A stretch of DNA of 64,000 bases from Spirochaetia bacterium (GCA_965203055.1 OZ241863.1:1088001-1152000), one strand, 5' to 3'. Shown: positions 10,571 through 51,991, numbered from the stretch's first letter. The notes: a model not told the origin generated them from the sequence alone. Translations and numbers: made by a program.

Positions 10571-12122
<1,552 letters not shown>

Positions 12123-12126
<4 letters not shown>

Positions 12127-13465: not shown

Positions 13466-13475
13466 TCAGCCGGCG

Positions 13476-20274: not shown

Positions 20275-20399
20275 TATTCGGCCCGGAAGATGGCACCTGC
20301 GGCGTGACTCGGCGGCGCATTCCAAGCGGCTAGACGTTCCGTCAGATGCTACTGCCGAGAATGTGCCGGCGTCGACAGGGCGCGATCTGCCGGGTCCCG

Positions 20400-20554
20400 A
20401 GGGGCCGGCTTCGGTGCCGGCGCGGGCGGCGTTGAGGGCAAGCAGGCGGGCGAGCACTTCGTCGTGGGACTCCGGCGCGGTCCATGGCGGCGTGCAGCGC
20501 GGCGCGGTACTCGTAGTACGCCCTTCCGGCGGCTTCGAGGGCGGGATCGGTCAC
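20400..20554 (-). pseudogene. Fragments of a type IIG/Eco57I-like restriction-methylase C-terminus
   Basis: LEAAGRAYYEYRAAL, LHAAMDRA and (other frame) HDEVLARLLALNAARA adjacent, intervening segments missing. Confidence 0.55.
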
Positions 20555-20617
20555 AAATTGGAAGTGCGCCGCGCCGCGCGCGCACCGCCGGCAGCCCGCA
20601 TGCTATGCTGGCAGGAG

Positions 20618-20743
20618 ATGCTCGAAACGTTGTTCCCGCGGCGCGCGGCGAACGAATTTCACGGCGCTCCGCTCGCCGGCTGGGCGCTGGCGGCCATGAC
20701 GTTGATCATGCTGGTGTTGGCGCTACGCGAGCGGAAGGTCTGA
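20618..20743 (+). CDS. 41-aa single-TM peptide, probably an internally deleted membrane-protein gene
   Basis: MLETLFPRRAANEFHGAPLAGWALAAMTLIMLVLALRERKV; stops 2 nt before DUF499 ATG. Confidence 0.35.
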   Translation: MLETLFPRRAANEFHGAPLAGWALAAMTLIMLVLALRERKV

Positions 20744-20745
20744 GC

Positions 20746-23700
20746 ATGGCGACCCCGACGATCTTCGAGACTTGCCGGCCGCGCGCCGACGTCCTCGCCG
20801 GCAGCGTCGCCGAGGCGGACTTCGCCGCCGACCTGGCCGAGGTGGTCACCGGCCGGGGCAGCGCGCAGTACCGCGATCCGGTCCGGTTCTTCGCCAACAC
20901 CTATCCGACGCGCGGGCTCAAGGCCCTGCTCGCCAACGTCTGCCGGCGGCTGAGCGGCGCCGGCGGCGAGGCGGCGGCGATCTTCCGCCTCGACACCTCC
21001 TACGGCGGCGGCAAGACCCACGCGCTGATCGCCCTGGCGCACGCGGTGCGCGGGCGGGCGGCCGGCGCCGACCTGAGCGAGTTCGTCGCGCCGGCGCTGC
21101 TGCCGGCGGGCGCGGTGCGGGTGGCGGCGTTCGACGGCGAGAACGCCGATCCCGCAAACGGGCGCGCGCTGGGCGACGGGGTGCTGGCGCACACGCCGTG
21201 GGGCGAGCTCGCGTACGCGCTGGCCGGCCGGCAGGGCTACGAGCGGGTGAGCCGCAGCGACCGGGAGGGGGCGGCTCCCGGCGCGGAGACGCTGCGCGAG
21301 CTGTTCGGCGGCGCGCCGGCCCTGATCCTGCTCGACGAGCTGTCGGTATACCTGCGCAAGGTGCAGCGTCTGCCCGGCGCCGGCGACCAGTTGACCGCGT
21401 TTCTCACCTCGCTGTTCAAGGCGGTCGAAGGAGCGCCCAACGCGGCCCTGGTCTACACCCTGGCGATCGGCAAGGATGGGCGCGCGACCGACGCCTACGG
21501 CGCGGAGAACCGCTTCATCGGCGACCGCATGGCGGAGGCGGAGAGCGTGTCGGCGCGCAAGGCCACGCTGCTCGATCCCACGGCCGAGGACGAGACAGTC
21601 CAAGTGCTGCGGCGGCGCCTGTTCGAGAGGATCGACGAAGCGGGGGCGGAGGCGGCGATCGACGCCTACCGCGAGCAGTGGGCGCTGCACGGCGGCGCGC
21701 TGCCCGCGGACGCCGCCCGCCCGGAGACCGCGCAGACCTTCGCCGCGAGCTATCCGCTGCATCCCGAGGTGCTGGCCACCCTCACCGGCAAGACCGCCAC
21801 GCTGAGCAACTTCCAGCGCGTGCGCGGCATGCTGCGGCTGCTGGCGCGCACCATCGCGCAGCTCTGGCAGGCGCGGCCCTCGGACGCCGCCGCCATCCAC
21901 CTGCACCACGTCGACCTGGGTCATGAGCCGATCCGCCAGGAGATCGTCATCCGCCTGGGGCAGTCAGCCTACCTGCCGGCGATCGCCAACGACATCGCCG
22001 CCGGCGGGGGCGAGGGCGGCACAGCGCTGGCGCAGCAGATCGACGCCGCCCGGCACGGCGGCCTGCCGCCCTACGGGGCCTACGTCGCGCGCACCATCTT
22101 CATGCACACGCTGGCGTTCAACGATCCTCTCAAGGGGCTGTCGCCGGAGCGGCTGCGCTACTCCCTGCTCGGCCCGGCTACCGACGTCGGCTTCATCGAC
22201 GAGGCGCGCCGCCGGTTCGTGGCCGATTCGGCCTATCTCGACGACCGTCCGGGCGCGCCGCTGCGGTTCCTGGCGGAGGCCAATCTGAGCCTGATCATCC
22301 GCCGCGAAGAACAGCACGTGGACGCCGGCGATGCCCGCGCGGATCTGAACGACCGCATCAAGCGGGTGTTTTCGGGGGACGCGTTCGAGCTGGTGCCGTT
22401 TCCGGGCGGGCCGTTCGACGTGCCGGACGACGTTGGCGACGGGCGCCCGCGGCTGATCGTGCCGGCCTATGACGGGGTGGCGGTCGGCGACAGCGTCGGC
22501 GCGGCGCCGGAGCTGATCGCGCGCATCTACGCCCGCAAGGGGGCGGAGGGTTCGGCGCTGCGCATGCTGCGCAACCACCTGGTGTTCGCGGTGGCGGACG
22601 CGGAGCGCAAGGCGGAGATGCAGCGCGCCGCGGTCCGGCGGCTGGCCCTGCAGGCGCTGTTGCGCCCGGAACGGCTGGCGGAGCTGGCCGAGCATCAGCA
22701 GGCCACGGTGCGCGAGCAGGCGGCGCGGTCGGAGCAGGAGTTGGCGATCGCCATCCAGCAGTGCTACCGCCACCTGTTCTATCCGTCGCGCAACCGCGTG
22801 GGCGCCGCCGACGTCGATCTGGCGCACACCGCGATCGAGCTGCCGGCGGCGTCGGACCAGCCGGGCGCCGGCCAGCAGCAGGTGGTTCGCGCGTTGCGCG
22901 AATTGGCCAAGCTGCGACTGGCCGAGGATGAACCCGACTCGCCGGCCTACGTGCGCGACCGCACGCCGCTCAAGCGGCCAGATCACGACCCTGGCGCTGC
23001 GCGACGAGTTCCGCCGCGATCCGGCGCTGCCGATCCTGAGCGGCGACGACATCTTTCTGCGCGGCATTCGGCGCGGGGTGGAGCGCGGCGACTACGTCTA
23101 CCGGCGCGGCGAGCTGCTCTACGGCCCGGACGACCCGCCGGCCGACCTGCTGATCGACGAACGGGCGCTGGTGCTGACCGTGGCCTACGCCCGCACCAAG
23201 GGCATCTGGCCCCGCCCGGCGCAGGGGGCCGCGGCCGGCGATGGCCAGGTGGGCGGGGCCGGGCCGACCGAAGGGTCCCGCAGCAACGGCGGCGGACCGG
23301 ATGAGGTGCGTCAGCCGCCGGACGGGGGATTGCCGCCGGAGAGCCCCGGACCGGGCGAGTTCACCGCCGAGGGCGTGCTGCGGGAAGCGCTGACGCGGCT
23401 GTGGGAGCAGGCGCGCGCCGGGGGCGCGGCGCGGGTCTCGAAGTTGACGATCCGCATGTTCGAGGCCGGCGACGGCTTCCGGCTGCTCGGCGCGGTGGGC
23501 GCGGTGACCGGCGCGGACAAGGAGGTGACCATGGCCGGCGGCTACGAGACCCGCGACGGCGGTTCCTTCATATTGGAGTTCAACGGTCCGGTGGCGGACG
23601 CGCAGCCGGTGCGCGAATTCCTCGAACCGCAGTTGCGGGACTGCGCCTCGCGCACGCTGGAGGTGTCGTTTCGGATCACCTTCGCCGCCGGCCTGCCGCT

Positions 23701-23797
23701 GGCGGGCGACGCCGCGGAGCGGCTCGCCGAACGGCTGGCGCGGTTCGCCGGCGGGGCGGCGTACGTGGCGGCGACCGCCGCGGCGCAGGCCTCGTGA
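20746..23797 (+). pseudogene. DUF499 family ATPase with one frameshift near 22975
   Basis: FAADL, FFANTYPT, Walker A LDTSYGGGKTH, LILLDEL, YPLHPE, FQRVRGMLRLLA; reading continues GQITTLALRDEFRRDP in another frame to 23797. Confidence 0.85.
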
Positions 23798-24285
23798 TGG
23801 CGCGCGCGGAGCGGGAGATTCGCATCGAGCCGGCCGCGTCGGCGCCGCGCTACGAGCTGCGGGTGCGCCGGCATCGGCCCGGCGCCGCCGAATACGCGGT
23901 CTGGCAGTTGCCGGCGCCGGCCACGCCGCAGGTGAAGCGGGCGCAGCGCGTCGCCCGCCTGCAAGGCGCCAACCTCGACCTGATCGAACACCGCGTGCTG
24001 CGCCGGCTGGCGCGAGCCGGCGTCCGCCTCGGCCCGCGCGCCGGCGCCGCGGACCGCGGCTATCCGCTGCCGGAGGAGGCGGCGCTGCTGCTGGGGCTGC
24101 TGTTCCGCGCCTTGGCGCCGATGCGCAACCGCGATAACATGCGCATGGTGACCGCGGGCATCGAGGCGATGGAGCCTGAGGAAGCCGCGTACTGGGCGGG
24201 CATGGCGATCCACCGCCGCCGCCCCCGCCGCGTGCTGAAGGCCCTCCGCATCCTCCTCACCGATTGCAATGCCGGACGTACCTGA
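23797..24285 (+). CDS. Small partner of DUF499 (DUF3780-like position and C-terminus)
   Basis: Start overlaps DUF499 stop; LGLLFRALAPM, EEAAYW, KALRILL. Confidence 0.65.
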   Translation: MARAEREIRIEPAASAPRYELRVRRHRPGAAEYAVWQLPAPATPQVKRAQRVARLQGANLDLIEHRVLRRLARAGVRLGPRAGAADRGYPLPEEAALLLGLLFRALAPMRNRDNMRMVTAGIEAMEPEEAAYWAGMAIHRRRPRRVLKALRILLTDCNAGRT

Positions 24286-30215: not shown

Positions 30216-30319
30216 GCCCGGTCACGGCCGCGGCCGCCGGTGCTGGCCGCGCCTCTCACTCCCGTCGGCTGCGCTGCTCGAACCAGATGCGCCGGCAGCG
30301 AGGCAAGCAAGCGGCGCCT

Positions 30320-31700: not shown

Positions 31701-31912
31701 CTACATGCTCTGAAATCCTGCCAATCGATTCCCAACTGCCGAACGGCCGCACGGATCGTTCCCGATTTCAGATCGCGTCCACCGTGGTCAGGAATGACCG
31801 TGGTTCTCCGGGACGCGGGATTGTACCACTTCCGATGAGAACCACTGCCTCGTCGTTGACGCTCGCTGCAACCGAGAAATCGCCAATTTCGGGCGACTTC
31901 ACGGTACGTGAC
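31701..31912 (-). pseudogene. hicA: HicA toxin remnant lacking a start codon
   Basis: VTYREVAR..LGC..RRGSGSHRKWYNP..TVIPDHGGRDLKSGTIRAAVRQLGI; begins GTC with in-frame TAG upstream. Confidence 0.7.
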
Positions 31913-32153
31913 TGGCCGCTATCACGGTTTCGAACCACACCGGGCCGTTTGCTTCGGTAATCCAGATGCTCCGCGGCAACAACCGGCCGTCCTCCTGGTA
32001 GAGTTCGATGACCGCGGCAAGAGCATCCTTGGCGTTTTCCAGGGCGTCACTCAGAGTATCCCCCTCGGTTACCAATTCCGGCAGCGCAGGAGAGGTCACG
32101 GTATAGCCGCCTTCCGGTTGAGGTGTCATGACCAGCGGTACTTTGTATTCCAT
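31899..32153 (-). CDS. hicB: HicB family antitoxin
   Basis: PQPEGGYTVTSPALPELVTEGDTLSDALENAKDAL. Confidence 0.8.
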   Translation of the reverse strand: MEYKVPLVMTPQPEGGYTVTSPALPELVTEGDTLSDALENAKDALAAVIELYQEDGRLLPRSIWITEANGPVWFETVIAASHVP

Positions 32154-32309
32154 CAATCGTCTGCCTTCGCAGGGTAGCATAACTCTTGCAGGCTGGCAGG
32201 CAGGTTGTCGAGCCACGCTTGATACTCCGCCTGCAGGTCGAGCAGCGTGCGTACTGCCTCCTGCCAGCGTTGCGGACGCGATCTGCTGCTGGCTGGCGCA
32301 GGGTGGCGC

Positions 32310-32654
32310 GCTGGCGGCTGTTGAGACTCTCGAACTGCTGCCGCAGCCGCTCCTTGGCTGCCGATGACACCTCCTCCGCTGCCAGCACCCGTTGATACGG
32401 CGTCTGCGGCGCATCGTACTGGCGCCGCGTCCGCGCTCCCTGCCTCGTCTTCGCCACCAGCTTCTGCGATCTTGACCAGGCGCCCGCCCCGCCAGATGAA
32501 CACGGTGCGCCCCCAGCAGCGCAGCACCCACGCGGCATGATGGCGCGTCCAGCCGTTCAACTGCATCAACTGATCCAGGATGATGCCCTTCGTGCGCCGC
32601 GACCCGCGCCAGTTCGCGCGTCACCGACTTGCGCTCTGCCATGGTCAGCCCCAT
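32310..32654 (-). pseudogene. Integrase-core-type transposase remnant (N- and C-termini only)
   Basis: MGLTMAERKSVTRE..ILDQLMQLNGWTRHHAAWVL joined to QKLVAKTRQGAR..YDAPQTPYQRVL; catalytic core absent. Confidence 0.6.
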
Positions 32655-32829
32655 CTCCTCCGACCTCCTGCCCCGATCTTGGGCCAGGTCGTTCGGGTGG
32701 ATTCTTAGATTAGATGAGGCACCACTTACCCCTCGAGTGGATTTGGGTGCGGCAATGCGCCTGGTTGCCGCACCTGCTGAGGGCCGGTCCTTGTGTGCCG
32801 CTCGCATGTGGTATGATCGGCACCTGACC

Positions 32830-33792
32830 ATGCACGATGCTGGCTACAAGCGGTTGTTTGCGCAGCCGCACACGGTTCAGGACCTGTTGCGCGGCTTCGC
32901 CGCCCGCGACTGGAGCGAGGCTCTCGACTTCTCGACCCTCACCCCGGTGCCGGCCAGCTTCGTCAGCCACCGCCTGCGCCAGCGCCACGGCGATCTGGTG
33001 TGGCGGGTCCGGTTCCACGATGAATGGCTGTACCTCCTGGTGCTGCTGGAGTTCCAGTCCACCATCGAGCCGGCCATGGCAACGCGGATGCTGACCTACA
33101 CCGGCATGCTGTACGAGAAGCTGATCGACGACGGCGTGCTGCGCGAACATGGCAAGCTGCCGCCGGTGCTGCCCATCGTGATCTACAACGGGCGCCAACC
33201 GTGGACGGCGGCCGAGGACGTGGCGGAGCTGATCGCGTTCGGCGGGGAGGCGCTGGCGCGGTATCAGCCGTCGCTGCGCTACTATCTGCTTGACCAGGGG
33301 CGGCTGGGAGCGGACGATCTGCCGGGTCGCAACTTGGTGTCGGCGCTGATCGCGCTGGAGACCAATCGCGCGGATGAGCGGACGCCGGAGTTGCTGGCAG
33401 CGCTGTTCGAGCGGCTGCGGGAGTTGGAGACCCCAGAGTTGACGCAAGTGTACCGGGAATGGGTGAATCAGGTGCTGGTGCCGCGCAAGATGAAGGGCAC
33501 GGCGTTGGAATCGTTGCCGGGATCGGAGGAGGTAGGGCCGATGTTGCAGGAATTGGTAGCCGGATGGGTCGCGGAAGGCCGCGAACAGGGTATCGAGCAG
33601 GGCCGTAGCGAAGAACGCAGGCGGCTGTGCCGGCAGGCGGCGCTGAAGTTCACGCCGGAAACGGCGCCGCGGTTGTCCGTCCTGTTGGAGGGTCTGACCG
33701 ATCCGGAGAGCCTGTTGCAGGTCGGCGACTGGATCATCGAATGCGAGACTGAGGAGGATCTGTTGGCCCGTGTGCAGGACGCGATCCCATAA
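32830..33792 (+). CDS. Rpn family nuclease/putative transposase (copy 2)
   Basis: Near-identical to 30397-31371, one fewer EQGI repeat. Confidence 0.9.
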   Translation: MHDAGYKRLFAQPHTVQDLLRGFAARDWSEALDFSTLTPVPASFVSHRLRQRHGDLVWRVRFHDEWLYLLVLLEFQSTIEPAMATRMLTYTGMLYEKLIDDGVLREHGKLPPVLPIVIYNGRQPWTAAEDVAELIAFGGEALARYQPSLRYYLLDQGRLGADDLPGRNLVSALIALETNRADERTPELLAALFERLRELETPELTQVYREWVNQVLVPRKMKGTALESLPGSEEVGPMLQELVAGWVAEGREQGIEQGRSEERRRLCRQAALKFTPETAPRLSVLLEGLTDPESLLQVGDWIIECETEEDLLARVQDAIP

Positions 33793-33807: not shown

Positions 33808-34070
33808 GTGACGGTGAACGTCATCCGGCCAAGACGCAGATCTCGCCTCGTTTCGTTGTTATCGTTCGTAACGGCGATCCGGTGGCGCGTCTTGTCGGCC
33901 TCGAGGGCACGCAGGGCACGCGCCGGTTCGGCGCGTTGCGGGATCGGATCGTCGTCGATGACCGCTTCTTCGAACCGCTCCCGGAGAGCGATCTGGCCGA
34001 TGGACGCCGTGATCCATGCGGGTTCTGCTCAATACCATGCCTGCTGTGGTGCCTTGCCGGTAGTGCACCG
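33808..34070 (+). pseudogene. Decayed phd antitoxin followed by a VapC/PIN toxin stump
   Basis: Second copy of phd remnant; ATG 34016 MRVLLNT then frameshifted LLWCLAG (cf. MRxLLDTHxLLW). Confidence 0.5.
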
Positions 34071-34110
34071 ACTTCGCGTGCAGATCACGACATGATCGGC
34101 AACCGCGGCG

Positions 34111-37100
34111 ATGTCCGACCCCAATAGGAAACGACGTACGTTGAAGCAGTCAACGATAAAGAGACTATACGCCCCTAGTGGGAACCAGTGTGCACACCCA
34201 GGATGTCAGAACCTGTTAATTGCACCAGAAACCGAGCAATCAGATGCTGCTGTTGTCAATAATATCTGCCACATATATGCAAGAAGCGATAGTGGCCCTA
34301 GGAATAACCCGGGCCTTACTGAAGAGCAACGAGATTCCGACGATAACCTGATACTACTTTGCGCGCATCACCACGGGATAGTGGACAAGCAACCGGAGAC
34401 CTACACCGCCGAGACACTCAAGCAATGGAAGCGAGAGCATGAGGCGAAAGTAAAGGACAGAATGTATTCCAATCGCATCCCGGTAGAATTCTTCACAAAG
34501 ATCATCGAAAAGGACATAAATAGACTCAGAAAGAGACTTTCCTTCGGAGATTCCAAGGACATCGAAACGGCACTATCACTCGCCTACCGGTTGACCGAAG
34601 GAAACTACTCGACTGGTCCGGACAGGGTCAGAGTGATCGGACTTGCATGGTGCGTCAGAGTTTTATCGGCCGGAGACAAGTTTGATGACGCCGAGCGATA
34701 CCTCGGCGCTGCCCGGAAAATCGGTTCCTGCGCAGAAATCAAGATCGCCAGTGCCATGACGTTGGCAGGCAAAAGAAACAAAAGAGGTGCGCTTAGCGAG
34801 TTAGGAGATCTCGATACGCCTACATCTCGATCGGCAGCATTCAAGGTGGTCGCCCGTCACGACGGACTGCAGCGAGCCATCGAGTGGCTCGACGCCTCGA
34901 ATATACCGCATGCAAAGCTCGACCACGATGGCAAATTGCTGCTTCTTAGGAGTCAACTTAAACTAGGTCTTTGGAACCAGGCGTTTGCAAGTCTGGATAT
35001 TGTCGACGATAACGATTTACGGGAAGCGCCGGCTCTGCATTTCTTCATCGGGATGACCAATCTGATGAAAGTTGTCCCGCCGGAGCTTCGCAACGTTGTA
35101 CTTCGATATCCGTCTTCTATCGGAGTGCCGCTTGCATCGGATACAATTGCGATGATCAACCTGCGTACCGCTTATTGTCACTTTGTCCGCGCAAGGGACG
35201 CGGCTAAGGACCTTGACTGTCTCGAAGCGTGCTCGACAGCAGAAGAATATTCGCTATGGACTGGTCTCAGACATCCTGACTTGAAGGCGCGTGCGCGACA
35301 CCGGCTCAAGCAGATACGGTGCGAGGACTCGTCGCGTCTTCGCTTTGTGTCGCTCGGTCTTCAGTTTGGACTCGATTTAGATAAACAGGACGTCGAGCGT
35401 AAGATCGAGCAGCAGATTGCCATCAGGGGAGGGCCTACATACGACACTGCCGTGGCGAGGTTTGCGATTGCGACGGCCCAAACGACACCGGGCGCGATAC
35501 TGGATTACCTCTCCAGGTACGGACGCGAACTGACTGATTTCATTGATAATCAGGCACTACGAAAGATCGAGATCGAGATGCTTGCGCGTGCCGGCCGTCC
35601 TCACGAGGCGAAGGAGCGCATGCGCGAGTTGTCGATCGACGGTACTTTGGATGCTGACGTCGATCGGCTCCAGGCGTGTATCGAAGAGTCGAAGGGAGCA
35701 GATCCAGTCGACATACGAAGACATCAGTTCGAACAGACGGATGATCTTATAGACTTAATACAGCTTGTAGACGGTCTCGAGTCAGCCAAGCGGTGGTCTG
35801 ATGTATGTCGCTATGGAAAAATACTTTTCGATAGGACAAAATCGATCGATCACGCGGAACGGCTGGCGCATGGTTTCCACATGACGGCAAGTGACGACCA
35901 CTTGTCTACATTTCTGACGGATAATTTTGAACTGGTCGAGAAGTCGTCGCGACTAAAATTTCTCCGCTGCGTAGCGCTATATTATGAGGGCCGATTTGTT
36001 GAGTCTCTCCAAGATCTGAAGAAGCTTCGTGATGAGTCGGGAGACTCGATTCAAGAGAAATCCTATCGTACACTTCAGATAGAAATCCTGGTCGCCTTAG
36101 GTGATTGGAAAGCTGTTACCGCAATCGTGACGGAGGAATACGGCAGACGAGACGAGCGGAGTGCGGAAGAACTGATGAAGTTGGCCGAGATAGCGTGCGG
36201 TCTATCATTTCCGTACGGTAAGGATATCGTGTTTGCAGCCGTAGAGAAGGGCAGGAGCGATCCGGCTATTCTGATGAGAGGGTTTAATCTGGCGTCGACA
36301 CATGGCTGGGATAATCATGAGGAAGTAGGGAAGTGGTTGCGGGATGCCGCGTCCTTGTCAGATACTGATGGACCGGTTTGGAAGATCTCCCTAAAGGAGG
36401 TCAAGGATCTGAGCAAGTCTTGGAATGGTCGTGTTACAGACGTATCGCGACGATTGTGGTCCGGAGAGGTTCCTATGTTCGTAGCGGCGCAGCTCATGAA
36501 TGCGTCTCTCTGCGGATTGGTCCTCGGGCAAGCGTATGGTAACTATGAAGAACGTGACCCTAGACGGAGATCGACGATCCCTGCCTATAGTGAGAATCGA
36601 CAGCGATCGACCACGACTGGAATCGATGGGACCTCGACAATCGCGGTGGATGGGACTGCGTTATTCACAATGAGCCTGTTGAACATCTTAGACAAATTTA
36701 TCGACTCATTCTCCATGGTCTATATTGCGCATAATACGTTGCCTTGGCTACTACATGAAAAACAGACGTCCATGTTCCATCAACGGCGACTGGTAGAAGA
36801 AGCGCGCGAATTACATCAGTTGCTTGCTACAAACGTATTAGAGATAATGTCGCCGAGTGTGGCGCCGAGTAGCGATCTGCGCGAACAGGTTGGTGGAGAT
36901 CTGGCTCAGATGATAGCGGAGGCAATGAAGTCAAGGAGCGGTGACGAGCCGCGGCCCCTTGTTGTCCGGTCGGCGCCCGTGTATCGACTGTCGTCCCTGA
37001 TGGAAGAAGAAGTCGATTTGATCGAATACTCCGATGTGTTAGTTTCGTGCAGTACGATCGTGAAGGCGCTCCGAACGAGGGGAGTGATCACGGTTACGGA

Positions 37101-38185
37101 GGAGAGACTGGCAAGCGAATATCTAGATCTTCATGAGCGATCGTGGCCAGATGAGCCGGAGCTAGCGGATAGAGCAACATTGTATTTGGATGATCTGTCG
37201 ATTACCTACTTCTTGCATATCGGTATCTTGGATAAAATCTACAGCGCGGGTTATCGAGTATTAGTTTCCCAAAGACGCGTATCGGATGCCAATCGTCTGA
37301 TTTCGTATCAGAGCGTTTTAGCGAAGGTGGACTGTGCAATTGAACAAGTCAGAGATGCGCTTCACAGGGGATTAATCGCAGGCAAGGTTTCGGTTGGAAA
37401 GAGGTTCGTCAACCGTGATATGGCGGACGAATCAATCGCGAGACACTCTACGATAGGTGTCGTTGGATTAGCAGATGTCTGTAATGCGATGGTGATCGAT
37501 GACAGGTTCATGAATAGACACCAGAATGTAGCCAATACCGAAGTTCTTACTACGCTTGATGTAATCGACATACTGGTTGGTCAGGGCGCTATGTCGGAGG
37601 ACGATCGGTTGGATTACCGTGCTTCTCTCCGTAGATATGGGTACGTCTCTATCTCTCTCGAACCCGACGAACTAAGGCAGCACATTGCGATGTCCACGGT
37701 AAAGGGTGGTGCGGTCTTAGAGACGGCTGAATTGAGGGCCATTCGAGAGAACATTCTAGCTCTTAGAATGGGACGTTGGATTCATAATCACGACGGATTC
37801 CTTTGGATCAACTCGTTCTTCAAGGTACTCAAGGATACCTTGAAGGATCTCTGGAGTGGTAGCGATGAACTTTCCAATGTCCGAGCTTGGTCGGATTGGA
37901 TCATGAGCCAGGTCGATATTCGTGGATGGATACACACTTTCGACAAGGTAAAGGATGGTGGCGTTATCGCGCGAATGTACATGATGACAGTCGCCGATTT
38001 GGTGCTTTCTCCGATGACGATTCCTGTGGAGAGACGGGATGAATTCCATCGTTTGGTTGGAGGAGCGAATACTGATTCCTATCAGGGACCATGATCGTGA
38101 AGTATTTTCGCAGATGGTCGGATATTGTCGAGAGTTGATTTCGAAAGCCGCTAATACCAACCTTAAGGAGTTTCAGAAGAAGTGA
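34111..38185 (+). CDS. Large protein: N-terminal HNH, helical/TPR-like middle, PIN-like C-terminal region; frameshift near 38053
   Basis: SGNQCAHPGC..CHIYA..GPR..NLILLCAHHHGIVD; IAVDGTAL, LYLDDL, MVIDDRF; ORF stops at 38094 as read, alternative frame ends at 38185. Confidence 0.75.
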
Positions 38186-40113
38186 GCAGTAGTCGCTACT
38201 GGAGGCGTTCGGTCGTACATTTCACATTACAAAATATAACACCGCTGGTGCGCGACGAGCTACTGGAGGATGCGAATTTTCGGAACGAATACGACATCAG
38301 GCCAGATCCTATTCTGCAGTTCGGCCGCGATCTTTTCGTCCAGGGATCGGATCTGTGTGATGCGATCCGCAGGGTCCTGTCGGGTTCCTCGACGGCAGAA
38401 ATTATTGATCAGAAGAATCGGACGTGCAGGGTCGAGCGGGTGGACGATACTTCGGGGGTTCCTAGAATTGTACTTTCTTTTAACGGTAGTTATACCGATG
38501 TGAGTGATCACTTCGTACTGTCGCCGGATGAGCGTACACGGTTGGGCTACTTTGACCGCTTGTTGCGTACCTCGAATCTGTCACGTGATCCGATATCGTC
38601 ATGGCGGACCGTAATATCAGATCGAGCACTTGAAGATCACGAGGTGTATGAGTTGATGGGTGATATTGCCAATACGCCAGTTCGAAGAATGCGAATTATC
38701 CAAAGCATGGTAGCTCGCGATGAGAGCATCCGGGTTGACTCCTTGGTACCTCGGTCACGTCGATATTTCGAGAGACTGGTGGGGGCGTATGATGGAAGCG
38801 ATAGTATACAGGATTACGCTTGTGGCGCTGGTCGACGGCATATTCAGGCACTACTGGAATGGGAGCCTTGTAACGGATTCTTTTATAGTCTTCTTTTGTC
38901 GGCACACTCATCGTTGGTCAATCAGATAGACGTCGAGAGAATTGACCCTGACGATCTTATGCGATCGTTTCGTTTTTTGGAAAAAAAGGGTGACGTGCTG
39001 TCGCGAATGGGGGCGATCGAGGTCGGGTTTCGGCTAATAGGAGTCATGCCGGACTTGGAACCGGTTCTCGTTCGTCTCATTGAGCGCATGCGGGATGATG
39101 ATGGCCATGGACCGAAGAGTGGAGTACGGTTCATGTCGTCACTGTTTCAACTCGTCGACGGTGAGATTTCTAGGGTACGTCTGTTTTCCGACCGCCCGGC
39201 ATTCTATCGTAGATTGGCGGCCATGGCGCACGCGGCGCTGTTGTATCGCATATTCGGAGACTCTTACGAGGGGATGGCGGAGGTCGGCAATCGGATAGTG
39301 CGAAGTTACGGGAGCCGATTTATGGTTCAAACGCTGATCGACACACGTACGGAACCACGGTGGGGCTTCGACCTGGCAGAGCCGATATTTCTTCGGTCGG
39401 AATTTATGAAACGTATAGTGGCGGGAGCGCAGCCTGTTTTTAGCGACATCAGGGATCGTCATTTGCGGTCGCTTTTTGCGGTGAATGAAGCCGACGGGTC
39501 TTGCCGAGGGCTGAATTGGACGCCTTTCCTTCAACCTGGTCCGCTTGAGGGTGCGGGCGAAGTCGAAGGTAGGGTTCCATCTGAAATCACCGAACTGGTC
39601 GATGAGTGGCTTGCTGTTGACCCGATTGATCCGGCTGCGTGTGCAGGTTTGGGCTATCTTGTACGTATTGTAGACGTTGCGGATCAAGCGGAATCACTTA
39701 GGAGCCGTGTGGAGGAAGACGGGTTCCGGTTTTCGGAATCGGAGGATAAAGAGTCTTTGGTGCACGCAATGCATGGCCTGGCGACGGTGGCGGCGGTAAC
39801 GAGGAGTGTGGCACTTGGAGACCGGATAGCGGTACTCGTCGGCAAATATCGACGCGATGCTCGATGCCGACTATCGGTCGCCGAGGCGGTGACGATTGTT
39901 CTTGCGGCGGCGGCGAGTCGCGGCGATTCGAAGGAATGGATGGATTATGTGGGGAGTGCGCTGACAGGTCTGGCGTTTGGTGAGTTAGCGGATGACGAGG
40001 GACATCAGCTTCAAGGCTGGTTGAGAGAGATCTGCGATATAGTTCCCGAATTATGGGGATTCTGTGGACAGGCTGACGCCGCGTTGGCGGCATACAACGG
40101 AAGACTTGCCTGA
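38182..40113 (+). CDS. Hypothetical protein (643 aa), partner of the HNH-PIN protein
   Basis: Long ORF with the same low GC; AAGGAG RBS; GTGA overlap with the repaired upstream gene. Confidence 0.75.
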   Translation: MSSSRYWRRSVVHFTLQNITPLVRDELLEDANFRNEYDIRPDPILQFGRDLFVQGSDLCDAIRRVLSGSSTAEIIDQKNRTCRVERVDDTSGVPRIVLSFNGSYTDVSDHFVLSPDERTRLGYFDRLLRTSNLSRDPISSWRTVISDRALEDHEVYELMGDIANTPVRRMRIIQSMVARDESIRVDSLVPRSRRYFERLVGAYDGSDSIQDYACGAGRRHIQALLEWEPCNGFFYSLLLSAHSSLVNQIDVERIDPDDLMRSFRFLEKKGDVLSRMGAIEVGFRLIGVMPDLEPVLVRLIERMRDDDGHGPKSGVRFMSSLFQLVDGEISRVRLFSDRPAFYRRLAAMAHAALLYRIFGDSYEGMAEVGNRIVRSYGSRFMVQTLIDTRTEPRWGFDLAEPIFLRSEFMKRIVAGAQPVFSDIRDRHLRSLFAVNEADGSCRGLNWTPFLQPGPLEGAGEVEGRVPSEITELVDEWLAVDPIDPAACAGLGYLVRIVDVADQAESLRSRVEEDGFRFSESEDKESLVHAMHGLATVAAVTRSVALGDRIAVLVGKYRRDARCRLSVAEAVTIVLAAAASRGDSKEWMDYVGSALTGLAFGELADDEGHQLQGWLREICDIVPELWGFCGQADAALAAYNGRLA

Positions 40114-40169
40114 ATTCGGAATCGATTGGTGATATTTGAGCAGCATGGACAGCATGATTGGTGGCGGGC

Positions 40170-43115
40170 ATGAGTGGCGCCGCCAGCAAACGCGATGCTG
40201 ACACCCGGCTGATCGAGCGGTGGCTGCCGATAGCGGCGCTTGGGATCGAGAGTATCCGCGAGCGGACGCCGATGACGCCGTTCCCGGCGCCGAACCGGTT
40301 GCACGTGTGGTGGGCGCGGCGGCCGTTGGTGGCGTCGCGGGCGGCGGTGCTGGCGTCGCTGCTGCCGGCGGACGCCGACCGGAAGCGGTTCCTGCGCGTG
40401 CTCGGCATCCACGGCGACCCGGTGGCGGCTCGAAGACTCATCGATAAAGCGCAACGGTCCGGCGTCAGAGTAAGCAACCCATATGACTATAGCCGCGCCT
40501 TCAGCTACGTCCTTGATGACCGTGATTTTCGTTGGTTGAAGTCTGAGATAGCGGACGTTTCGGTGCTCGACCCTACCGCCGGTGGAGGAAGTATACCGTT
40601 CGAGGTAGGTCGATTGGGTCTTGCTTGCTTGGGGAATGATCTCAATCCCGTTGCCGCCCTGATCTTGAAGGCGACGGTGGAATGGGTCGGCCAATTTCAC
40701 CAGGAGATAGAGACGGTATTCACCAGCTTGGCGGCAGAGTGGCGGGGACGAATGGAGGACCGTCTCACAGGGGTATTCCCTCAGATCGACCTTCCGGACC
40801 GGGTGGACATGACGTACCTCTGGGCGCGGACGGTGAGTTGTCCGTACTGCGGGGGGCGGGTGCCGCTGGCGCCGAACTGGCGGTTGGCGCCGGACGGGAC
40901 AGGGGTGCGGCTGGAACCGCTGGCCGCCGGTGGACCGGGAGCGCCGGGGCGGGTGTGCCGGTTCCATGTGGTGCATTCGGCGCGGGAGCAGGCGGCGGGG
41001 ACGGTGGCGCGCGGGGCGGGCAGCTGCCCGTGGCCGGATTGCGGGCGGGTGATCGCCGGCGAGGAGATCAAGGCGCAGGCGCGGGCCGGCGCGATGGGCG
41101 AGCAACTGTTCGCGGTGGTCTACAAGGAACGGGTGAACACGTATACGAAGACGGGCCGCCGGCGCGAGAAGTGGGTGCGCCGCTACCGCGCGCTGCGTCC
41201 AGAAGACGACAACGCCGCCGAGATAGCGGCGCGGCTGGCGGAGAAGCTGCCGGAGTGGGAGGCGTTCGACCTGGTGCCGGGGGAGCGGATCCCCGACGGT
41301 ACCAAGACTACCGAGCCGCTCCGCTACGGGATGCCGCGCTGGCGGGACCTGTTCTCACCGCGCCAACTGCTGTGCCACGGCACCGGCGTAGAGGTGTACC
41401 GCGAACTGCTGGAAGCCGACCGCGCCGCCGGCGCGCTGACGCCGCTGCGCCAAGCCGCCTACGGCTACCTGGCCCTCTCGCTCGACAAGACCCGTGACTA
41501 CAACTCCCGCATGACTCGCTGGCACGTAGGGCGCGAAGTAATGGTCAATACCTTCGACCGGCATGACTTCTCCTTCAAGTGGTCCTACGCCGAGATGGCG
41601 CCGCTGATCACCGGCCTGGGCTACGACTGGGCCATCCGCCAAACCGCCAAGTGCATCCAGGAACTGGTCGCCCTGGTGCGCCCCGGCGCCGGCGGCGGCT
41701 CCGGTGATCTGTTCCCTGAGTCGGGCGCGCGGCCCGCCGTCACCATCACCTGCAAGCCGGGCGACAACCTCGACCATATCCCCGCCGGCAGCGTCGACGC
41801 GGTGGTCATGGACCCGCCCTACTACGACAACGTGATGTACGCCGAGCTGTCCGACTTCTTCTACGTCTGGCTGAAGCGCACCGCCGGCCACGTCTTTCCC
41901 GCCCTGTTCCGCCGCCGCCTCACCGACAAGGAGAACGAGGCGGTCGCCAACCCGGCCCGGTTCCGCGGCCAGCCGGGCGCCGCGGCGCTCGCCGGGCGCG
42001 ACTACCAGGAGCGGATGGCGAGCATCTTCGCCGAAATGCGCCGCGTGCTGAGAGCCGACGGGGTGATGACGCTGATGTTCACCCACAAGGCGGCCGGCGC
42101 CTGGGACGCGCTGACTACCGGGCTGATGCAGGCCGGCTTCGCGATCACCGCGTCATGGCCGATCAACACCGAGGCGGAGGGCAGCCTGCACGTGCGCAAC
42201 AAGGCGGCCGCCAACAGCACCATCTTCCTGGCCTGCCGCCCGCGCACCGCCGCGCGCGGAGCGGACGACACCCCGTACTACTGGGAAGACATCGAACCGC
42301 GGGTAGCCGGCGCGGTGCGCGCGCGGGTAGCGGAGTATCAGGCGGCCGGCATCCGCGGGGTCGATCTCTACCTAGCCTGCTTCGGCCCTGCCCTGGAAGA
42401 GTTCTCGCGCCACTGGCCGCTGGCGCGCGGCACGCCGCGCCCGGCGCCGCAGGAACGGCCCCGCCGCCGGCGGCAGCCGGAGTTGGAGTTGGAGGCGGAG
42501 CGGGACCCCTACGCGGTGAGCCCGGAAGACGTGCTGGACACCGCCCGGCGGGAGGTGAAGCGCTGGCGGCAGGAGCAACTGACGCGGCGGCGGGAGGACC
42601 TGGACCCTGCCACCGCCTTCTTCGTGCTGGCGTGGGACGCCTTCGAGGCGCCGGTGTTCGCCTACGACGAGGCGCTGCGCTTGGCGCGCGCGGTGGGCGT
42701 CGACCTGGAGCGGGAGGTGGTGGGCCGCTTGGCGGAGAAGCGCGGCAGCGACCTGCGGCTGTGGGACTCGACGCGGCGCGCGGCCGGCGGAGCGCTGGGG
42801 CCGCCCGACGGCGCGCGCGGTATGATCGACGCCGTGCACCACGCCGCCAACCTGGCGCGCACCCGCTCGCTCGACGATGCCCGCAAGCTGCTCGACGAGA
42901 AGCTGGGCGCGCGGGAGGGGGCGTTCCTGACCGCGCTGGAAGCGGTGCTGGAAGTGCTGCCGGTCAGCAAGAGGTGGACCGGCATCGACCTGCCGGGCGA
43001 GGCGGCGGCCGCCGGCAGCGACTTCGAGGCGCTCTACCACTTGGCGCGCCTGGCCTACGGCGACCGGATCGACGAGCCGAAGCAGCTCCGGCTGTGGCAG
43101 GATGAAGCTGCCTGA
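40170..43115 (+). CDS. DUF1156 family adenine DNA methyltransferase
   Basis: LHVWWARRPL, DPTAGGGSIPFE, DLNPVA, CPYC zinc ribbon, MDPPYYDN, YAELSDFFYVWLKR. Confidence 0.92.
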   Translation: MSGAASKRDADTRLIERWLPIAALGIESIRERTPMTPFPAPNRLHVWWARRPLVASRAAVLASLLPADADRKRFLRVLGIHGDPVAARRLIDKAQRSGVRVSNPYDYSRAFSYVLDDRDFRWLKSEIADVSVLDPTAGGGSIPFEVGRLGLACLGNDLNPVAALILKATVEWVGQFHQEIETVFTSLAAEWRGRMEDRLTGVFPQIDLPDRVDMTYLWARTVSCPYCGGRVPLAPNWRLAPDGTGVRLEPLAAGGPGAPGRVCRFHVVHSAREQAAGTVARGAGSCPWPDCGRVIAGEEIKAQARAGAMGEQLFAVVYKERVNTYTKTGRRREKWVRRYRALRPEDDNAAEIAARLAEKLPEWEAFDLVPGERIPDGTKTTEPLRYGMPRWRDLFSPRQLLCHGTGVEVYRELLEADRAAGALTPLRQAAYGYLALSLDKTRDYNSRMTRWHVGREVMVNTFDRHDFSFKWSYAEMAPLITGLGYDWAIRQTAKCIQELVALVRPGAGGGSGDLFPESGARPAVTITCKPGDNLDHIPAGSVDAVVMDPPYYDNVMYAELSDFFYVWLKRTAGHVFPALFRRRLTDKENEAVANPARFRGQPGAAALAGRDYQERMASIFAEMRRVLRADGVMTLMFTHKAAGAWDALTTGLMQAGFAITASWPINTEAEGSLHVRNKAAANSTIFLACRPRTAARGADDTPYYWEDIEPRVAGAVRARVAEYQAAGIRGVDLYLACFGPALEEFSRHWPLARGTPRPAPQERPRRRRQPELELEAERDPYAVSPEDVLDTARREVKRWRQEQLTRRREDLDPATAFFVLAWDAFEAPVFAYDEALRLARAVGVDLEREVVGRLAEKRGSDLRLWDSTRRAAGGALGPPDGARGMIDAVHHAANLARTRSLDDARKLLDEKLGAREGAFLTALEAVLEVLPVSKRWTGIDLPGEAAAAGSDFEALYHLARLAYGDRIDEPKQLRLWQDEAA

Positions 43116-43117
43116 CC

Positions 43118-46100
43118 GTGCTCGCCGACTACCCCTGGCAACTCAAGTACACGCCCGATGACGGCGACCTGGTGCGGTTGTTCTACGTGCCGGCGCTGCA
43201 GGAGGCGGAGCGCTACGACCGCCTGACCGGCTACTTCGACGCCGGCGCCCTGGCGCTCGCCGCGCGCGGCGTGGAAGGGTTGGTGCGCAACCGGGGCCGC
43301 ATGCGGCTGGTGGTCGGCTGCACCCTTGGTCCCGACGAAATCGATGCGCTCGACCGGGGTGAGGCGCTCCGCGAACAGGTAGAGCAGCGCCTGCACCGAC
43401 TGCCGCTGGCGCCGCCGGACGCGGCCGCGGCGGGCGCGCTGGAACTGCTGGCCTGGATGGTGGCGCGCGGGCACCTGGAGGTGAAGGCGGCGGTGCCGTG
43501 CGACGCCGAGCGGCGGCCGATCGCCGACGGCGCCCTGTTCCACGAGAAGACCGGCGTGATCGAGGACCGCGGCGGCGACCGCATCGCCTGGACCGGCAGC
43601 CTCAACGAGACCGCGGCCGGCTGGCAGCGCAACTGGGAGAGCATCAACGTCGCCACGAGCTGGGGCCCGGAACCGAAGCGGGTCGCCTGCGAGGAAGACA
43701 ACTTCGCGCGCCTGTGGGCCAACCGCGCGCGCCGCGCCATCGTGCTCGACGTGCCGGAGGCGGCGCGCCGCGACCTGCTGCGGTTCCTGCCGCCCGACGA
43801 CCGCCTGCCGGCGCGGCTGCGGGCGGACAGAGGCGCCGCGCCCGCGCACCCGGCGCACCCGGCAGGGCAGGCGTCGGTCCCGCAGCCGCCGCCCGCGCCC
43901 GGGCCGCCGGCGCACGACCGGCGCGGCCTGGTGTGGGCCTTCATCCGGGAGGCGCCGCGGCGCGCCGCCGGCGGCGAACGGGTGGGGGAGGCCACCGCCG
44001 CAGTGACGCCGTGGCCGCATCAGGTGCGCGCCTTCGAGCGCCTCTACCGGCAGTGGCCGCCGAAGCTGTTGATCGCCGACGAGGTGGGGCTGGGCAAGAC
44101 GATCCAGGCCGGCCTGCTGCTGCGCCAGGCGTGGCTCGCCGGGCGCGCGCGGCGCATCCTGATCCTGGCGCCGCGCGCGGTGCTGCCGCAGTGGCAGTTG
44201 GAGCTGCGCGAGAAGTTCAACCTCAACTGGCCGATCTACGACGGGCGCCGGCTGCTGCGCTATCCCTCGCCGGCGGTGCGCGGGCGCGCGGAGCGGGCGG
44301 TGGAGCCGGACCGCTGGCATGCCGAGCCGGCGGTAATCGCCTCCAGCCAGCTCCTGCGGCGGCGCGGGCGCGCGGCGGCGCTGCTGCAGGCGGAGCCGTG
44401 GGACCTGGTGGTGGTCGACGAGGCGCACCACGCGCGGCGGCGGGCGGCGGGGTCGGCGCGCGAGGGCGGACCGAACGCCCTGCTGCGGCTGCTGCGCCCG
44501 CTCCGCGAGCGGACCGCCGGCCTGGTGCTGCTCACCGCCACGCCGATGCAGGTGCATCCGGTCGAGGTGTGGGACCTGCTGAGCCTGCTGGGCCTGCCGC
44601 CGGAGTGGACGCAGGAGGCGTTTCTGCAGTTCTTCAGGGACGTGGCCGAGCCGAATCCGTCGGCCGCGGCGCTGGACCGCATGGCGCGGCTGTTCCAGGC
44701 GGCCGAACGCGCCTATGGCAGGGCCTCCGCCGAGGAGGTGCGGCGGCTGACCGGGCTGTCGCCGCTGAAGGCCAATCAGGTGCTGCGCGCGCTGCGCGAC
44801 GCGGCCAGCATCCCGCGCCGCCAACTGGAGACCCCGGAGCGCCGTGCGGCGCTGGCCGTGCTGCGGGCGCGCACGCCGCTGCGCCATCTCATCTCGCGCC
44901 ACACCCGCGAGCTGCTGCGCCGCTACTTCCGGGACGGCCTGCTTTCCACCCCGATCGCCGAGCGCCGGGTGGAGGATCGGTTCATCGACCTGAGCGCCGC
45001 CGAGCGGGAACTCTACGAGGCGGTGGAGCGCTACATTGCCACCAGCTACGCGCGGGCGGGCGCTGCCGAACGGTCCGCGGTGGGGTTCGTGATGACCATC
45101 TACCGCCGCCGCCTGGCGAGCAGCTTCCGGGCGTTGCGCGCCACCCTGGAGCGCCACCGCGCCGCGCTCGGCGCCGGCGGCGGGCCGCGGCCGGCCGGCG
45201 CCGCGGAGCTGGAGGAGGACGCGCCCGACGACGCGGCGAGCGAGGAGGCGCTGGACGCCGACGAGGTGGGCGACCGCGAGCGGAGCGCGCTGGCCGCCGC
45301 GCAGCGCGGGGAGATCGAGCTCCTGCTGGCCGCCATCGCGCGCCTGCCGCCGGACGGCAAGCTGGGGCACCTGCGCCGGGTGGTCGCCGGCCTGCGCCGC
45401 GCCGGCTACCGGCAGGCGATGGTGTTCACCCAGTACACCGCGACCATGGAGTTCCTGCGCGACGAGCTGAGCCGGGACGGCGGCCTGCGGCTGCTCTGCT
45501 TCTCCGGGCGCGGCGGCGAGGCGCCGGCCGCCGACGGTACGTGGCGCGCCATCGGCCGCGACGACGCCCGGCGCCGCTTCCGGGACGGAGAGGCGGACCT
45601 GCTGCTCTGCACCGACGCCGCCGCCGAGGGGCTCAACTTCCAGTTCTGCGGCGCGCTGATCAACTACGACATGCCGTGGAATCCGATGCGGGTGGAGCAG
45701 CGCATCGGCCGCATCGACCGCCTGGGGCAGGCGCATCCGGTCATCCGCATCGTCAACCTGCACTACGAGGGCACCGTGGAGACCGACGTCTACCGCGCCC
45801 TGCGCAGTCGCATCGGCTTGTTCGAGAACGTGGTGGGCCGGCTGCAGCCGATCCTGGCGCAGGTGCCGCAGGCGATTTCCGGCGCGGTACTGGCCGGCGG
45901 ACCGAGTGGCGGACCGGGCGCCGGGCCGGCGGAGCGCGGCGCCGCCGCGGTGGAGGCGCTGGAACGGGACGCCGCGGCGGCCGAGGCCGGCGGCTTCGAC
46001 CTGGACGCCGCGCTGGGCGAGGAGCTCACCCTGCCGCCGCGGGAGGCGCCGGCGCTCACGCTGGACGACCTGGAGCGGGTGATCGCCGACCCCGGCCTGC

Positions 46101-46330
46101 TGCCGCCGGGCAACGACGCGCAACCGCTGGGACCGCGCGAGTTCGGCCTGCTCGCGCCCGGCATGGGCGCGCCGGTGCGGGTCACCACCGACCCCGCCTA
46201 CTACGCGGAGAACGCGGAAAGCGTCGAGCTGTGGTCCCCCGGCAACCCGCTGTTCCGCCCGCCCGACTACCTGCCGCCGGCGTCCGCCCTGCCCCCGAAC
46301 GCCGCCCTTCCCGACCTGCTGGACCGCTGA
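43118..46330 (+). CDS. PLD-like nuclease + SNF2 helicase
   Basis: FHEKTG..TGSLNET; IADEVGLGKT, DEAHH, LLTATPMQ, EGLNFQ, DMPWNPMRVEQRIGRIDR. Confidence 0.92.
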   Translation: MLADYPWQLKYTPDDGDLVRLFYVPALQEAERYDRLTGYFDAGALALAARGVEGLVRNRGRMRLVVGCTLGPDEIDALDRGEALREQVEQRLHRLPLAPPDAAAAGALELLAWMVARGHLEVKAAVPCDAERRPIADGALFHEKTGVIEDRGGDRIAWTGSLNETAAGWQRNWESINVATSWGPEPKRVACEEDNFARLWANRARRAIVLDVPEAARRDLLRFLPPDDRLPARLRADRGAAPAHPAHPAGQASVPQPPPAPGPPAHDRRGLVWAFIREAPRRAAGGERVGEATAAVTPWPHQVRAFERLYRQWPPKLLIADEVGLGKTIQAGLLLRQAWLAGRARRILILAPRAVLPQWQLELREKFNLNWPIYDGRRLLRYPSPAVRGRAERAVEPDRWHAEPAVIASSQLLRRRGRAAALLQAEPWDLVVVDEAHHARRRAAGSAREGGPNALLRLLRPLRERTAGLVLLTATPMQVHPVEVWDLLSLLGLPPEWTQEAFLQFFRDVAEPNPSAAALDRMARLFQAAERAYGRASAEEVRRLTGLSPLKANQVLRALRDAASIPRRQLETPERRAALAVLRARTPLRHLISRHTRELLRRYFRDGLLSTPIAERRVEDRFIDLSAAERELYEAVERYIATSYARAGAAERSAVGFVMTIYRRRLASSFRALRATLERHRAALGAGGGPRPAGAAELEEDAPDDAASEEALDADEVGDRERSALAAAQRGEIELLLAAIARLPPDGKLGHLRRVVAGLRRAGYRQAMVFTQYTATMEFLRDELSRDGGLRLLCFSGRGGEAPAADGTWRAIGRDDARRRFRDGEADLLLCTDAAAEGLNFQFCGALINYDMPWNPMRVEQRIGRIDRLGQAHPVIRIVNLHYEGTVETDVYRALRSRIGLFENVVGRLQPILAQVPQAISGAVLAGGPSGGPGAGPAERGAAAVEALERDAAAAEAGGFDLDAALGEELTLPPREAPALTLDDLERVIADPGLLPPGNDAQPLGPREFGLLAPGMGAPVRVTTDPAYYAENAESVELWSPGNPLFRPPDYLPPASALPPNAALPDLLDR

Positions 46331-51975: not shown

Positions 51976-51991
51976 CTGCGTGCGCCGAATG

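Follow-up and report, generated by a model that had tools for sequence, protein, structure and literature searches.

A low-GC gene pair inside an Hma system

The stretch of DNA analysed here (the window) comprises 64,000 nucleotides from the genome of a Spirochaetia bacterium (GCA_965203055.1, OZ241863.1:1088001-1152000) and carries, at positions 34111-40113, a pair of genes which appears from its sequence to be a rearranged, usually split relative of the TPR-GreA/B-C-PIN (TGP) defence proteins. An open reading frame (ORF) scan of the window finds only two long ORFs in this block, both on the plus strand (Table 1). An earlier reading of the DNA, made from the sequence alone and referred to below as the original prediction, had singled the block out as a low-GC island of about 6 kb, and so it proves: averaged over 1-kb windows, GC content is 0.48-0.54 across positions 34000-39500, compared with 0.64-0.70 in the upstream flank and 0.70-0.78 in the downstream flank. 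The GC content of gene 1 is 0.51 and that of gene 2 is 0.53; at third codon positions the values are 0.55 and 0.53 respectively, while neighbouring genes range from 0.82 to 0.95. The HNH/PIN/GreA-like pair is foreign, low-GC cargo inside a restriction-like Hma system.

Table 1. Features of the gene pair and of the Hma genes on either side of it, in positions of the window (aa, amino acids; HTH, helix-turn-helix)
Feature	Position	Strand	Basis or remarks
Gene 1 as the DNA stands, 1327 aa	34111..38094	+	HNH, helical region, HTH, two PIN domains, frameshifted C-terminus
HNH (His-Me) nuclease head, residues ~6-127	34126..34491	+	PADLOC models, PDB matches, conservation
Helical region, ~630 aa, TPR-like at best	34492..36390	+	TPR_19 in some relatives
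HTH domain, PF24407 HTH_upst_double_PIN, residues 761-830	36391..36600	+	55.9 bits; helical in model
PIN-fold domain 1, residues ~840-1016	36628..37158	+	Predicted structure, acidic residues
PIN-fold domain 2 (PF20698), residues ~1017-1175	37159..37635	+	Pfam, predicted structure, acidic residues
Frameshift site, TTT run	38052..38054	+	TT in intact relatives and in a near-identical contig
Displaced final 43 codons of gene 1, +1 frame	38054..38185	+	Ends with TGA 38183-38185, overlapping the gene 2 GTG at 38182
AAGGAG, possible gene 2 ribosome-binding site	38165..38170	+	11 nt before GTG 38182; function inferred from sequence
Gene 2, 643 aa, GTG start	38182..40113	+	Partner; corresponds to the C-terminal half of fused relatives
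Small beta-beta-alpha-beta4 domain, residues 44-106	38311..38499	+	At the 'Permuted GreAB-C' footprint; alignment to P0015 1415-1464; secondary structure of the model
All-alpha solenoid (HEAT/ARM-like), residues 108-643	38503..40110	+	Model; generic helical-repeat matches only
Upstream Hma part: HmaC (DUF499, E 1.1e-98) 20308-23304; DUF7680 protein 23305-24285	20308..24285	+
Downstream Hma part: HmaB (DUF1156 methylase, 3.5e-69) 40158-43115; SNF2+PLD helicase 43106-46330	40158..46330	+

Domain structure of gene 1

The translation of gene 1 contains every HNH motif (GNQCAHPGC, NICHIYARSDSGPR and NLILLCAHHHGIVD) and PIN strand motif (IAVDGTAL, LYLDDL and VIDDRF) that the original prediction had quoted. 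A DNase-type HNH head had been proposed for its N-terminus and is borne out by residues 6-127, which match the PADLOC models of CBASS/SAVED-HNH effectors (E 4.8e-38 to 1e-8) and, among PDB sequences, the 'HNH endonuclease' 9om4 (2.1e-19) and the Cap5 entries 7rwm, 8ysq and 7rwk; the HNH residues C27, C32, C53/H54, N79, C84, H87/H88 and D92 are all present. This head is the only part of gene 1 matched in PADLOC 2.0.0 (PDC-M68A and the CBASS effector models), where neither the core of gene 1 nor gene 2 has a match, the PDC models included. Cap5, a SAVED-HNH effector of CBASS, has a head of the same type, but the resemblance ends at residue 127 and the window protein has neither the SAVED sensor domain nor a cyclase partner; activation must come from the TGP-like core.

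Behind the head lies a long helical region for which a TPR scaffold had been suggested, with weak support: in a Pfam scan of 23 family members, TPR_19 matches five at E<=0.05, a faint TPR signal, and gene 1 of the window is not among them. PF24407 (HTH) and PF20698 (PIN) each match all 23. In gene 1, PF20698, which Pfam describes as the 'PIN domain associated with the TPR-GreAB-C-PIN system', covers residues 1025-1138 with 37.3 bits (cut-off 27.8). A structural model of residues 740-1314, built on 37 sequences (pLDDT 88.3, pTM 0.83), consists of the helical HTH region, two alpha/beta/alpha units and a helical tail, and matches PIN domains in a fold search, in agreement with the PIN of TPR-GreAB-C-PIN type that had been expected. 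The opening strand of each alpha/beta/alpha unit terminates in an invariant Asp; the conserved acidic residues of both units have PIN-like spacing and are all present in the window copy: D847, E883 and D969 in the first, kept in 37/37 sequences, and D1027, E1078, D1130/D1131 and D1150/D1153 in the second. Apart from the frameshift described below, the nuclease-type domains of gene 1 are intact as far as their residues indicate.

Neither gene product has a Walker A motif (motif scan) or a match to an NTPase family (Pfam), which rules out an Avs/STAND NTPase sensor, as the original prediction had concluded. Against the PDB, Foldseek returned no match at E<=1e-3 for the gene 1 740-1314 model or for that of gene 2, and sequence searches with profiles A2 and A3 returned nothing meaningful. 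NCBIfam has no family for either protein.

Gene 2 is the second half of the same protein

Searched alone, the gene 2 product (P0002) has no match in Pfam, PADLOC or NCBIfam. A homologue search with gene 1, however, returned many proteins of about 2000 amino acids, and to one of these, the 2013-residue P0015, P0002 aligns over the whole of its own length, covering the C-terminal third of P0015 (residues 1368-2008 of P0015; 41% identity, E 3e-141). The fused relatives carry the Pfam domain PF24388, 'Permuted GreAB-C', which in P0015 lies at about residues 1415-1464, equivalent to residues ~48-97 of P0002, and PF24388 matches 41 of the 46 aligned members of the partner family at E<=0.01 (best 4e-15). 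In the structural model of gene 2 (pLDDT 87.9, pTM 0.89), residues 44-106 form a beta-beta-alpha-beta4 unit, and the chain continues as an all-helical solenoid; fold searches with this model found HEAT/ARM/importin-like repeats only, with non-specific scores. These alignments identify gene 2 as the other half of the same protein as gene 1, carrying a putative GreA/B-C-like domain, and the partner would be obligate for that reason. A complex prediction for gene 1 residues 1017-1314 with the whole partner scored 0.00, was run without controls and gives no verdict.

A widespread family with split and fused forms

Homologous loci were scanned in one genome per species, yielding 72, of which 57 have the core, 13 have the HNH only and two are fragments. 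The original prediction had held that homologues would keep the partner, and they do: in 46 of the 57 core loci it follows immediately downstream, on the same strand and in an abutting or overlapping frame, and nine encode a fused protein (~2000 amino acids). The partner was not found in the remaining two core loci, one at a contig end and the other a relative with 28% identity. Among representatives of 50%-identity clusters, a profile of the partner matches 1450 at E<=1e-3 and 832 at E<=1e-30; the best 150 representatives divide into 114 stand-alone proteins (600-700 amino acids), 22 of at least 1800 amino acids, eight intermediate forms and six fragments.

N-terminal heads vary over the 57 loci: 28 are HNH, two are partial HNH, 22 are other or unknown, and five are lost at a contig end. 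When 20 N-termini were scanned, seven matched DUF676-type alpha/beta-hydrolases and one each TIR, SMEK_N and PNP_UDP_1; the others were one weakly Mrr-like sequence, one HNH control and eight without a match. Database proteins of the family also include TIR heads and a C-terminal Schlafen/AlbA_2 addition. The comparison indicates that the effector head is modular and swappable among relatives, as had been anticipated.

Hosts belong to the Spirochaetota, Latescibacterota, Deinococcota, Nitrospirota, Chloroflexota, Pseudomonadota, Bacillota, Bacteroidota, Verrucomicrobiota and other groups. The module has a lower GC content than its flanks in 29/29 loci checked, and a quick search tree of the partner is incongruent with taxonomy. 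Related genomes match P0002 in nine of 41 cases at E<=0.001, eight of them full-length and at most one to a genome. Three plasmid records carry the module. One is a conjugative plasmid of Agrobacterium, in which the genes share 4 nt and are each annotated 'hypothetical protein' in RefSeq; their neighbours there are an integrase, VapBC, a SIR2 protein and an HsdR-N protein. Phage records held no match to P0002, and a PF20698 scan of 151 genomes of the phylum (E<=1e-6) found none either but was uninformative, its controls being equally silent. Taken together, these observations point clearly to a module that is mobile and keeps defence company.

Two of the loci have features of their own. In L018, tblastn matches the partner and the end of gene 1 a further time upstream of the main fused copy (L018:3-3200), which suggests a second, partial module in that island. 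In L041, a 1419-residue protein beside the module relative (L041:15233-19489, minus strand) combines an AAA_11/AAA_12 helicase, an MTES_1575 restriction endonuclease and a canonical GreA_GreB C-terminal domain (E 2.6e-7), and is possibly another RNA-polymerase-linked conflict protein.

Comparison with the TGP proteins and other known systems

TGP proteins were defined as predicted conflict proteins by Kaur, Iyer, Burroughs & Aravind (eLife 2021, PMC8195603), who describe a constant core behind one of 13 effector heads, mostly encoded as a stand-alone gene. They proposed that the protein docks on hijacked RNA polymerase, that its PIN domain cuts the transcript, and that the head fires if this fails. 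The HNH-headed rows in supplementary file 1 of that paper have 1207 and 1234 amino acids and the order TPR+GreAB-C+PIN; the one PIN+PIN row found in its source table is a protein of 2304 amino acids with the architecture TM+SIR2+TPR+PIN+PIN+TM (TM, transmembrane segment). One TGP protein has since been studied experimentally: Ibarlosa et al. (bioRxiv 10.1101/2024.11.07.622273) report that Agp, together with Bab, provides abortive-infection defence against T5 in E. coli ECOR25. The GreA/B-C mutants S628L and L634P of Agp abolish this defence, and the PIN mutant D762N loses resistance, although the protein is also destabilised (bioRxiv 10.1101/2024.11.07.622273).

The present family resembles TGP proteins, as these are described there, in having the same PIN family (PF20698), a helical region that is TPR-like at best and a domain which Pfam assigns to the GreA/B-C type, in keeping its core constant while the N-terminal effector varies greatly (HNH, TIR, PNPase and others), and in its scattered, mobile distribution. 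It differs in arrangement. Published TGP proteins run effector-TPR-GreAB-C-PIN in one gene of about 1100-1300 amino acids, whereas here the order is effector-helical-HTH-PIN-PIN, followed by the permuted GreAB-C and a 540-residue solenoid, about 2000 amino acids in all and usually in two genes; the PIN domains thus precede the GreAB-C-like domain. The Pfam architecture HTH_upst_double_PIN + PIN-TPR-GreABC + Permuted_GreAB-C is found in the pair, with PF24388 placed by alignment to the fused relatives. Agp, a TGP protein, works with the product of an adjacent gene, as gene 1 would with that of gene 2. In the preprint's account Bab is an amyloid-triggered, pore-type executioner of 109 amino acids, unrelated to gene 2, and Agp lacks an enzymatic head and relies on an amyloid motif, whereas here the partner holds the GreA-like domain and the executioner would be the fused HNH.

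The names of the Pfam families show that their curators know the double-PIN/permuted-GreAB-C architecture. A literature search for this variant yielded nothing beyond the TGP paper and the Bab/Agp preprint, and no description of it. Whether the pair matched a characterised system was a point on which the original prediction could have failed, and in part it applies: the class is published (PMC8195603) and Agp has been validated (bioRxiv 10.1101/2024.11.07.622273), so far as those sources describe them, which lowers the novelty of the prediction and leaves its interpretation of the gene pair standing and supported. The family is large and spans many phyla, and it extends the TGP class to a second architecture. 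Many genomes carry this predicted defence module unrecognised, since RefSeq calls its genes 'hypothetical' and PADLOC 2.0.0 has no model for it.

A frameshift at the end of gene 1

Close homologues (76-89% identical, 1344-1403 amino acids) end in ...RRDEFHRWLEER(I/V)L.PIRDHDRE...KEFQKK before the stop, whereas gene 1 of the window reaches ...RRDEFHR and then continues through 13 out-of-frame residues, unrelated to the homologues, to a stop. The missing 43 residues are conserved, include a near-invariant W, and are found in the +1 frame, the cause being a single extra T in a T run (Table 1); the frameshift named in the original prediction is thereby confirmed. Coupling of the two genes by GTGA and a gene 1 product of about 1350 amino acids had also been proposed, and both are true of the unshifted reading only (1357 amino acids) because the frameshift stops gene 1 early: in the actual DNA, 87 nt separate its stop from the start of gene 2. 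Gene 2 could still be translated if the AAGGAG before its start acts as a ribosome-binding site. As the frameshift removes a conserved 43-residue linker and uncouples gene 2, the window copy is probably impaired.

Proposed function and its weighing

We put at roughly 0.65 the probability that the two ORFs together encode, in split form, a single large anti-phage protein that is horizontally mobile and a putative sensor of RNA polymerase. The constant core of this protein runs from a helical (TPR-like) region through the HTH and the two PIN-fold nuclease domains to a short conserved linker; after the linker come a small GreA/B-C-like domain, which Pfam regards as circularly permuted, and an alpha-solenoid of about 540 amino acids. 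In front of the core stands a swappable effector, here a Cap5-type HNH DNase. In most relatives the gene is cut between the linker and the GreA/B-C-like domain, so that overlapping, coupled genes encode a nuclease scaffold (gene 1) and, separately, what would be the sensor subunit (gene 2). The gene 2 product would bind the C-terminus of gene 1 to form a complex and, by analogy with TGP and Bab/Agp, may use its GreA/B-C-like domain to survey RNA polymerase. When a phage takes over transcription, the contact with RNA polymerase would change; the PIN domains would then cut RNA and the HNH head be released to cut DNA, an abortive infection that would halt phage replication and sacrifice the cell. 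The window copy would be a foreign, low-GC arrival in a cargo slot of the Hma system that subsequently suffered a recent +1 frameshift. As the putative RNA-polymerase-sensing part is naturally separate from the nuclease scaffold, the sensing idea is directly addressable in this family.

Several results weigh against this reading. The action of the double-PIN/permuted-GreAB-C variant is proposed by analogy, RNA polymerase sensing is unproven even for classical TGP, and the domain order is unlike that of TGP, so that the analogy may fail. The assignment of the gene 2 domain to GreA/B-C rests on Pfam curation and a model name, because the GreA profile comparison was empty and the small domain was untouched by the fold search: hhalign of partner residues 20-140 against housekeeping GreA C-domains from 30 related genomes found nothing, whether the templates were single or tandem-duplicated, and the solenoid filled the fold-search lists, so that the small domain was not separately searchable. 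The ESM Atlas likewise had no usable match for P0002 or for the P0123 small domain. Gene 2 of the window itself stays below the threshold for PF24388 (no match at E<=0.01), and it shares with its closest relative a Cys at a position where the family has a near-invariant Trp. As for the two PIN domains, the aligned ranges of the fold matches cover both units together; their separateness rests on secondary structure, the Pfam name and the acidic motifs, and hhalign of the first against the second gave a weak match of 30 columns (probability 19%).

The state of the window copy raises the alternative that survives best, to which we would give somewhat less than even odds: that the family is real but the gene here is dead, gene 1 having been inactivated by the frameshift and the block persisting as a decaying relic and neutral cargo. 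Besides the loss of the 43 residues and the gap opened before gene 2, the T run speaks for it. Contigs from public sequencing runs were aligned to this stretch of the window, and those identical to the window, in X1 (depth ~184) and X5 (depth 2), keep the extra T, which counts further against a working copy, as it may be dead, and shows that the frameshift is real in the lineage or the assembly. A near-identical contig in run X2, which differs by one other letter and one gap over 2.5 kb, lacks the extra T, however, so the frameshift is recent or polymorphic; it is also absent from a diverged relative in X6 and, in X1, from a minor contig that has diverged. Against a relic stands the intact state of the rest: no catalytic-type residue is missing, and the frame of gene 2 is open and has its possible ribosome-binding site. 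Relatives are often broken too: frames are interrupted in L011, L013, L014, L042, L043, L044 and L055, although many of these breaks may be errors of metagenome assembly, and L046 (Nitrospirales) is broken by two copies of an insertion sequence. In the latter, two identical IS3-family (rve) transposase genes, inverted relative to each other, bracket the HTH/PIN segment of gene 1 (10283-13712).

An unlikely alternative leaves RNA polymerase out altogether: gene 2 would act as an inhibitory cap, in the manner of an antitoxin, and its degradation or displacement would free the HNH and PIN nucleases. Two coupled genes with the nuclease first, strict co-occurrence, a partner that is mostly a protein-binding solenoid and an N-terminal domain without detected similarity to real GreA would all suit such a pair. 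Fused single-chain forms are common, however (nine of the 57 loci and 22 of the best 150 representatives), and an unstable separate antitoxin cannot therefore be the general mechanism; both genes are also far larger than classical toxin-antitoxin partners, and the GreAB-C assignment by the Pfam curators extends to most partners (41/46). A classical VapBC system is ruled out by size and by the existence of the fused forms.

Position within restriction systems

The cargo that splits the Hma system of the window, between the DUF7680 gene and hmaB, amounts to about 16 kb; in related operons that are free of cargo (L079, L081), DUF7680 lies ~0.45-1.3 kb from hmaB. Besides the gene pair it contains an AAA_22 protein, PDC-S01, two YhgA-type transposase-like genes and a HicB-like ORF. 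Of the 1485 Hma systems analysed by Payne et al. (bioRxiv 10.1101/2024.01.29.577857), 62.7% have embedded genes, and defence candidates were derived there from embedding in Hma, BREX, DISARM and type I restriction-modification (R-M) systems. The module, lying between Hma genes, resembles those candidates, and one of them, PDC-S01, occupies the same cargo slot here: an AAA_14/DUF4143 protein at 28935-30215 matches it with E 1.6e-60. The pair adds a case to this published pattern of defences nested in Hma and type I R-M operons.

Four other genomes (L001, L002, L087 and L023; two places found twice by two tools were counted once) likewise have the module immediately before an hmaB homologue, on its upstream side, the module-hmaB gaps being ~33-120 bp with the window included. 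Three of these genomes are relatives, with modules 54-83% identical, while L023, labelled Entotheonella, has an Hma system ~70% identical but a module only 39% identical that is placed elsewhere in the tree. In L005, L008, L015 and L026 the module stands between hsdS and hsdR of type I operons, and L004, L038, L027 and L007 have a partial hsd arrangement. PrrC, which resides inside EcoprrI, is a precedent for the guarding of a restriction system. It may be asked whether the recurrent position at hmaB and between hsdS and hsdR, which in the ~70%-identical Hma operon seems to have been acquired separately, is functional wiring and not a neutral slot, the module serving as a dedicated second-line guard that fires when a phage disables the host R-M-type operon, without autonomous sensing of RNA polymerase. 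Such wiring would consist of co-transcription and of sensing phage anti-restriction or a stalled Hma/R-M complex, with the detachable GreA-like/solenoid subunit as adaptor. No terminator-like site was found between gene 2 and hmaB, in promoter and terminator scans that performed at chance level, and the Hma label requires two changes in the quick partner tree, both of which would fit a guard.

We nevertheless consider this improbable. Only 11 of the 57 loci have an hsd match of any kind and three have Hma, most having neither within ~8 kb; several hsd-embedded loci are non-independent, the Latescibacterota genomes that carry them being related; and the starred branches of the tree are compatible with a single origin of the Hma association. 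Moreover, Payne et al. describe a general pattern in which Hma, BREX, DISARM and type I R-M systems harbour defences that are autonomous and unrelated to them (bioRxiv 10.1101/2024.01.29.577857).

Least probable by far is a function outside defence, either as a housekeeping RNA-processing or transcription factor, for which the occurrence of PIN and GreA-like domains in RNA metabolism might speak, or as a selfish element like the homing endonucleases in which HNH domains also occur, given the patchy distribution (9/41 related genomes at E<=0.001, eight full-length), the foreign composition, the defence-island, R-M and plasmid contexts, and the exchange of the head for TIR, PNPase or hydrolase, which a homing element would not tolerate and which rules that element out.

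Other features of the window and related genomes

The remaining cargo begins with a 725-residue ORF with a faint PIN_4 match (E 0.009), which overlaps the AAA_22 ATPase gene (together 24634-27953). Homologues of the AAA_22 gene adjoin DUF7680 or hmaB in L002 and L076, and it may be a regular companion of Hma in this lineage. Two paralogous YhgA-like (Transposase_31) genes, at 30184-31371 and 32584-33792, flank an ORF at 31899-32843 on the minus strand with a weak match to HicB-like antitoxins. An IS3-family integrase-core ORF (46679-47437) directly follows the Hma helicase gene, and a separate HNH protein of 341 amino acids is encoded at 50966-51991 on the minus strand. In this lineage, HmaB-like genes for DUF1156 methylases are greatly expanded, with 22 matches in G000, 28 in G010, 27 in G011 and 26 in G012, and the housekeeping GreA/GreB C-terminal domain (G000:C1:1597436-1597657 and relatives) lies in open frames of ~900-960 amino acids, not the usual ~160.

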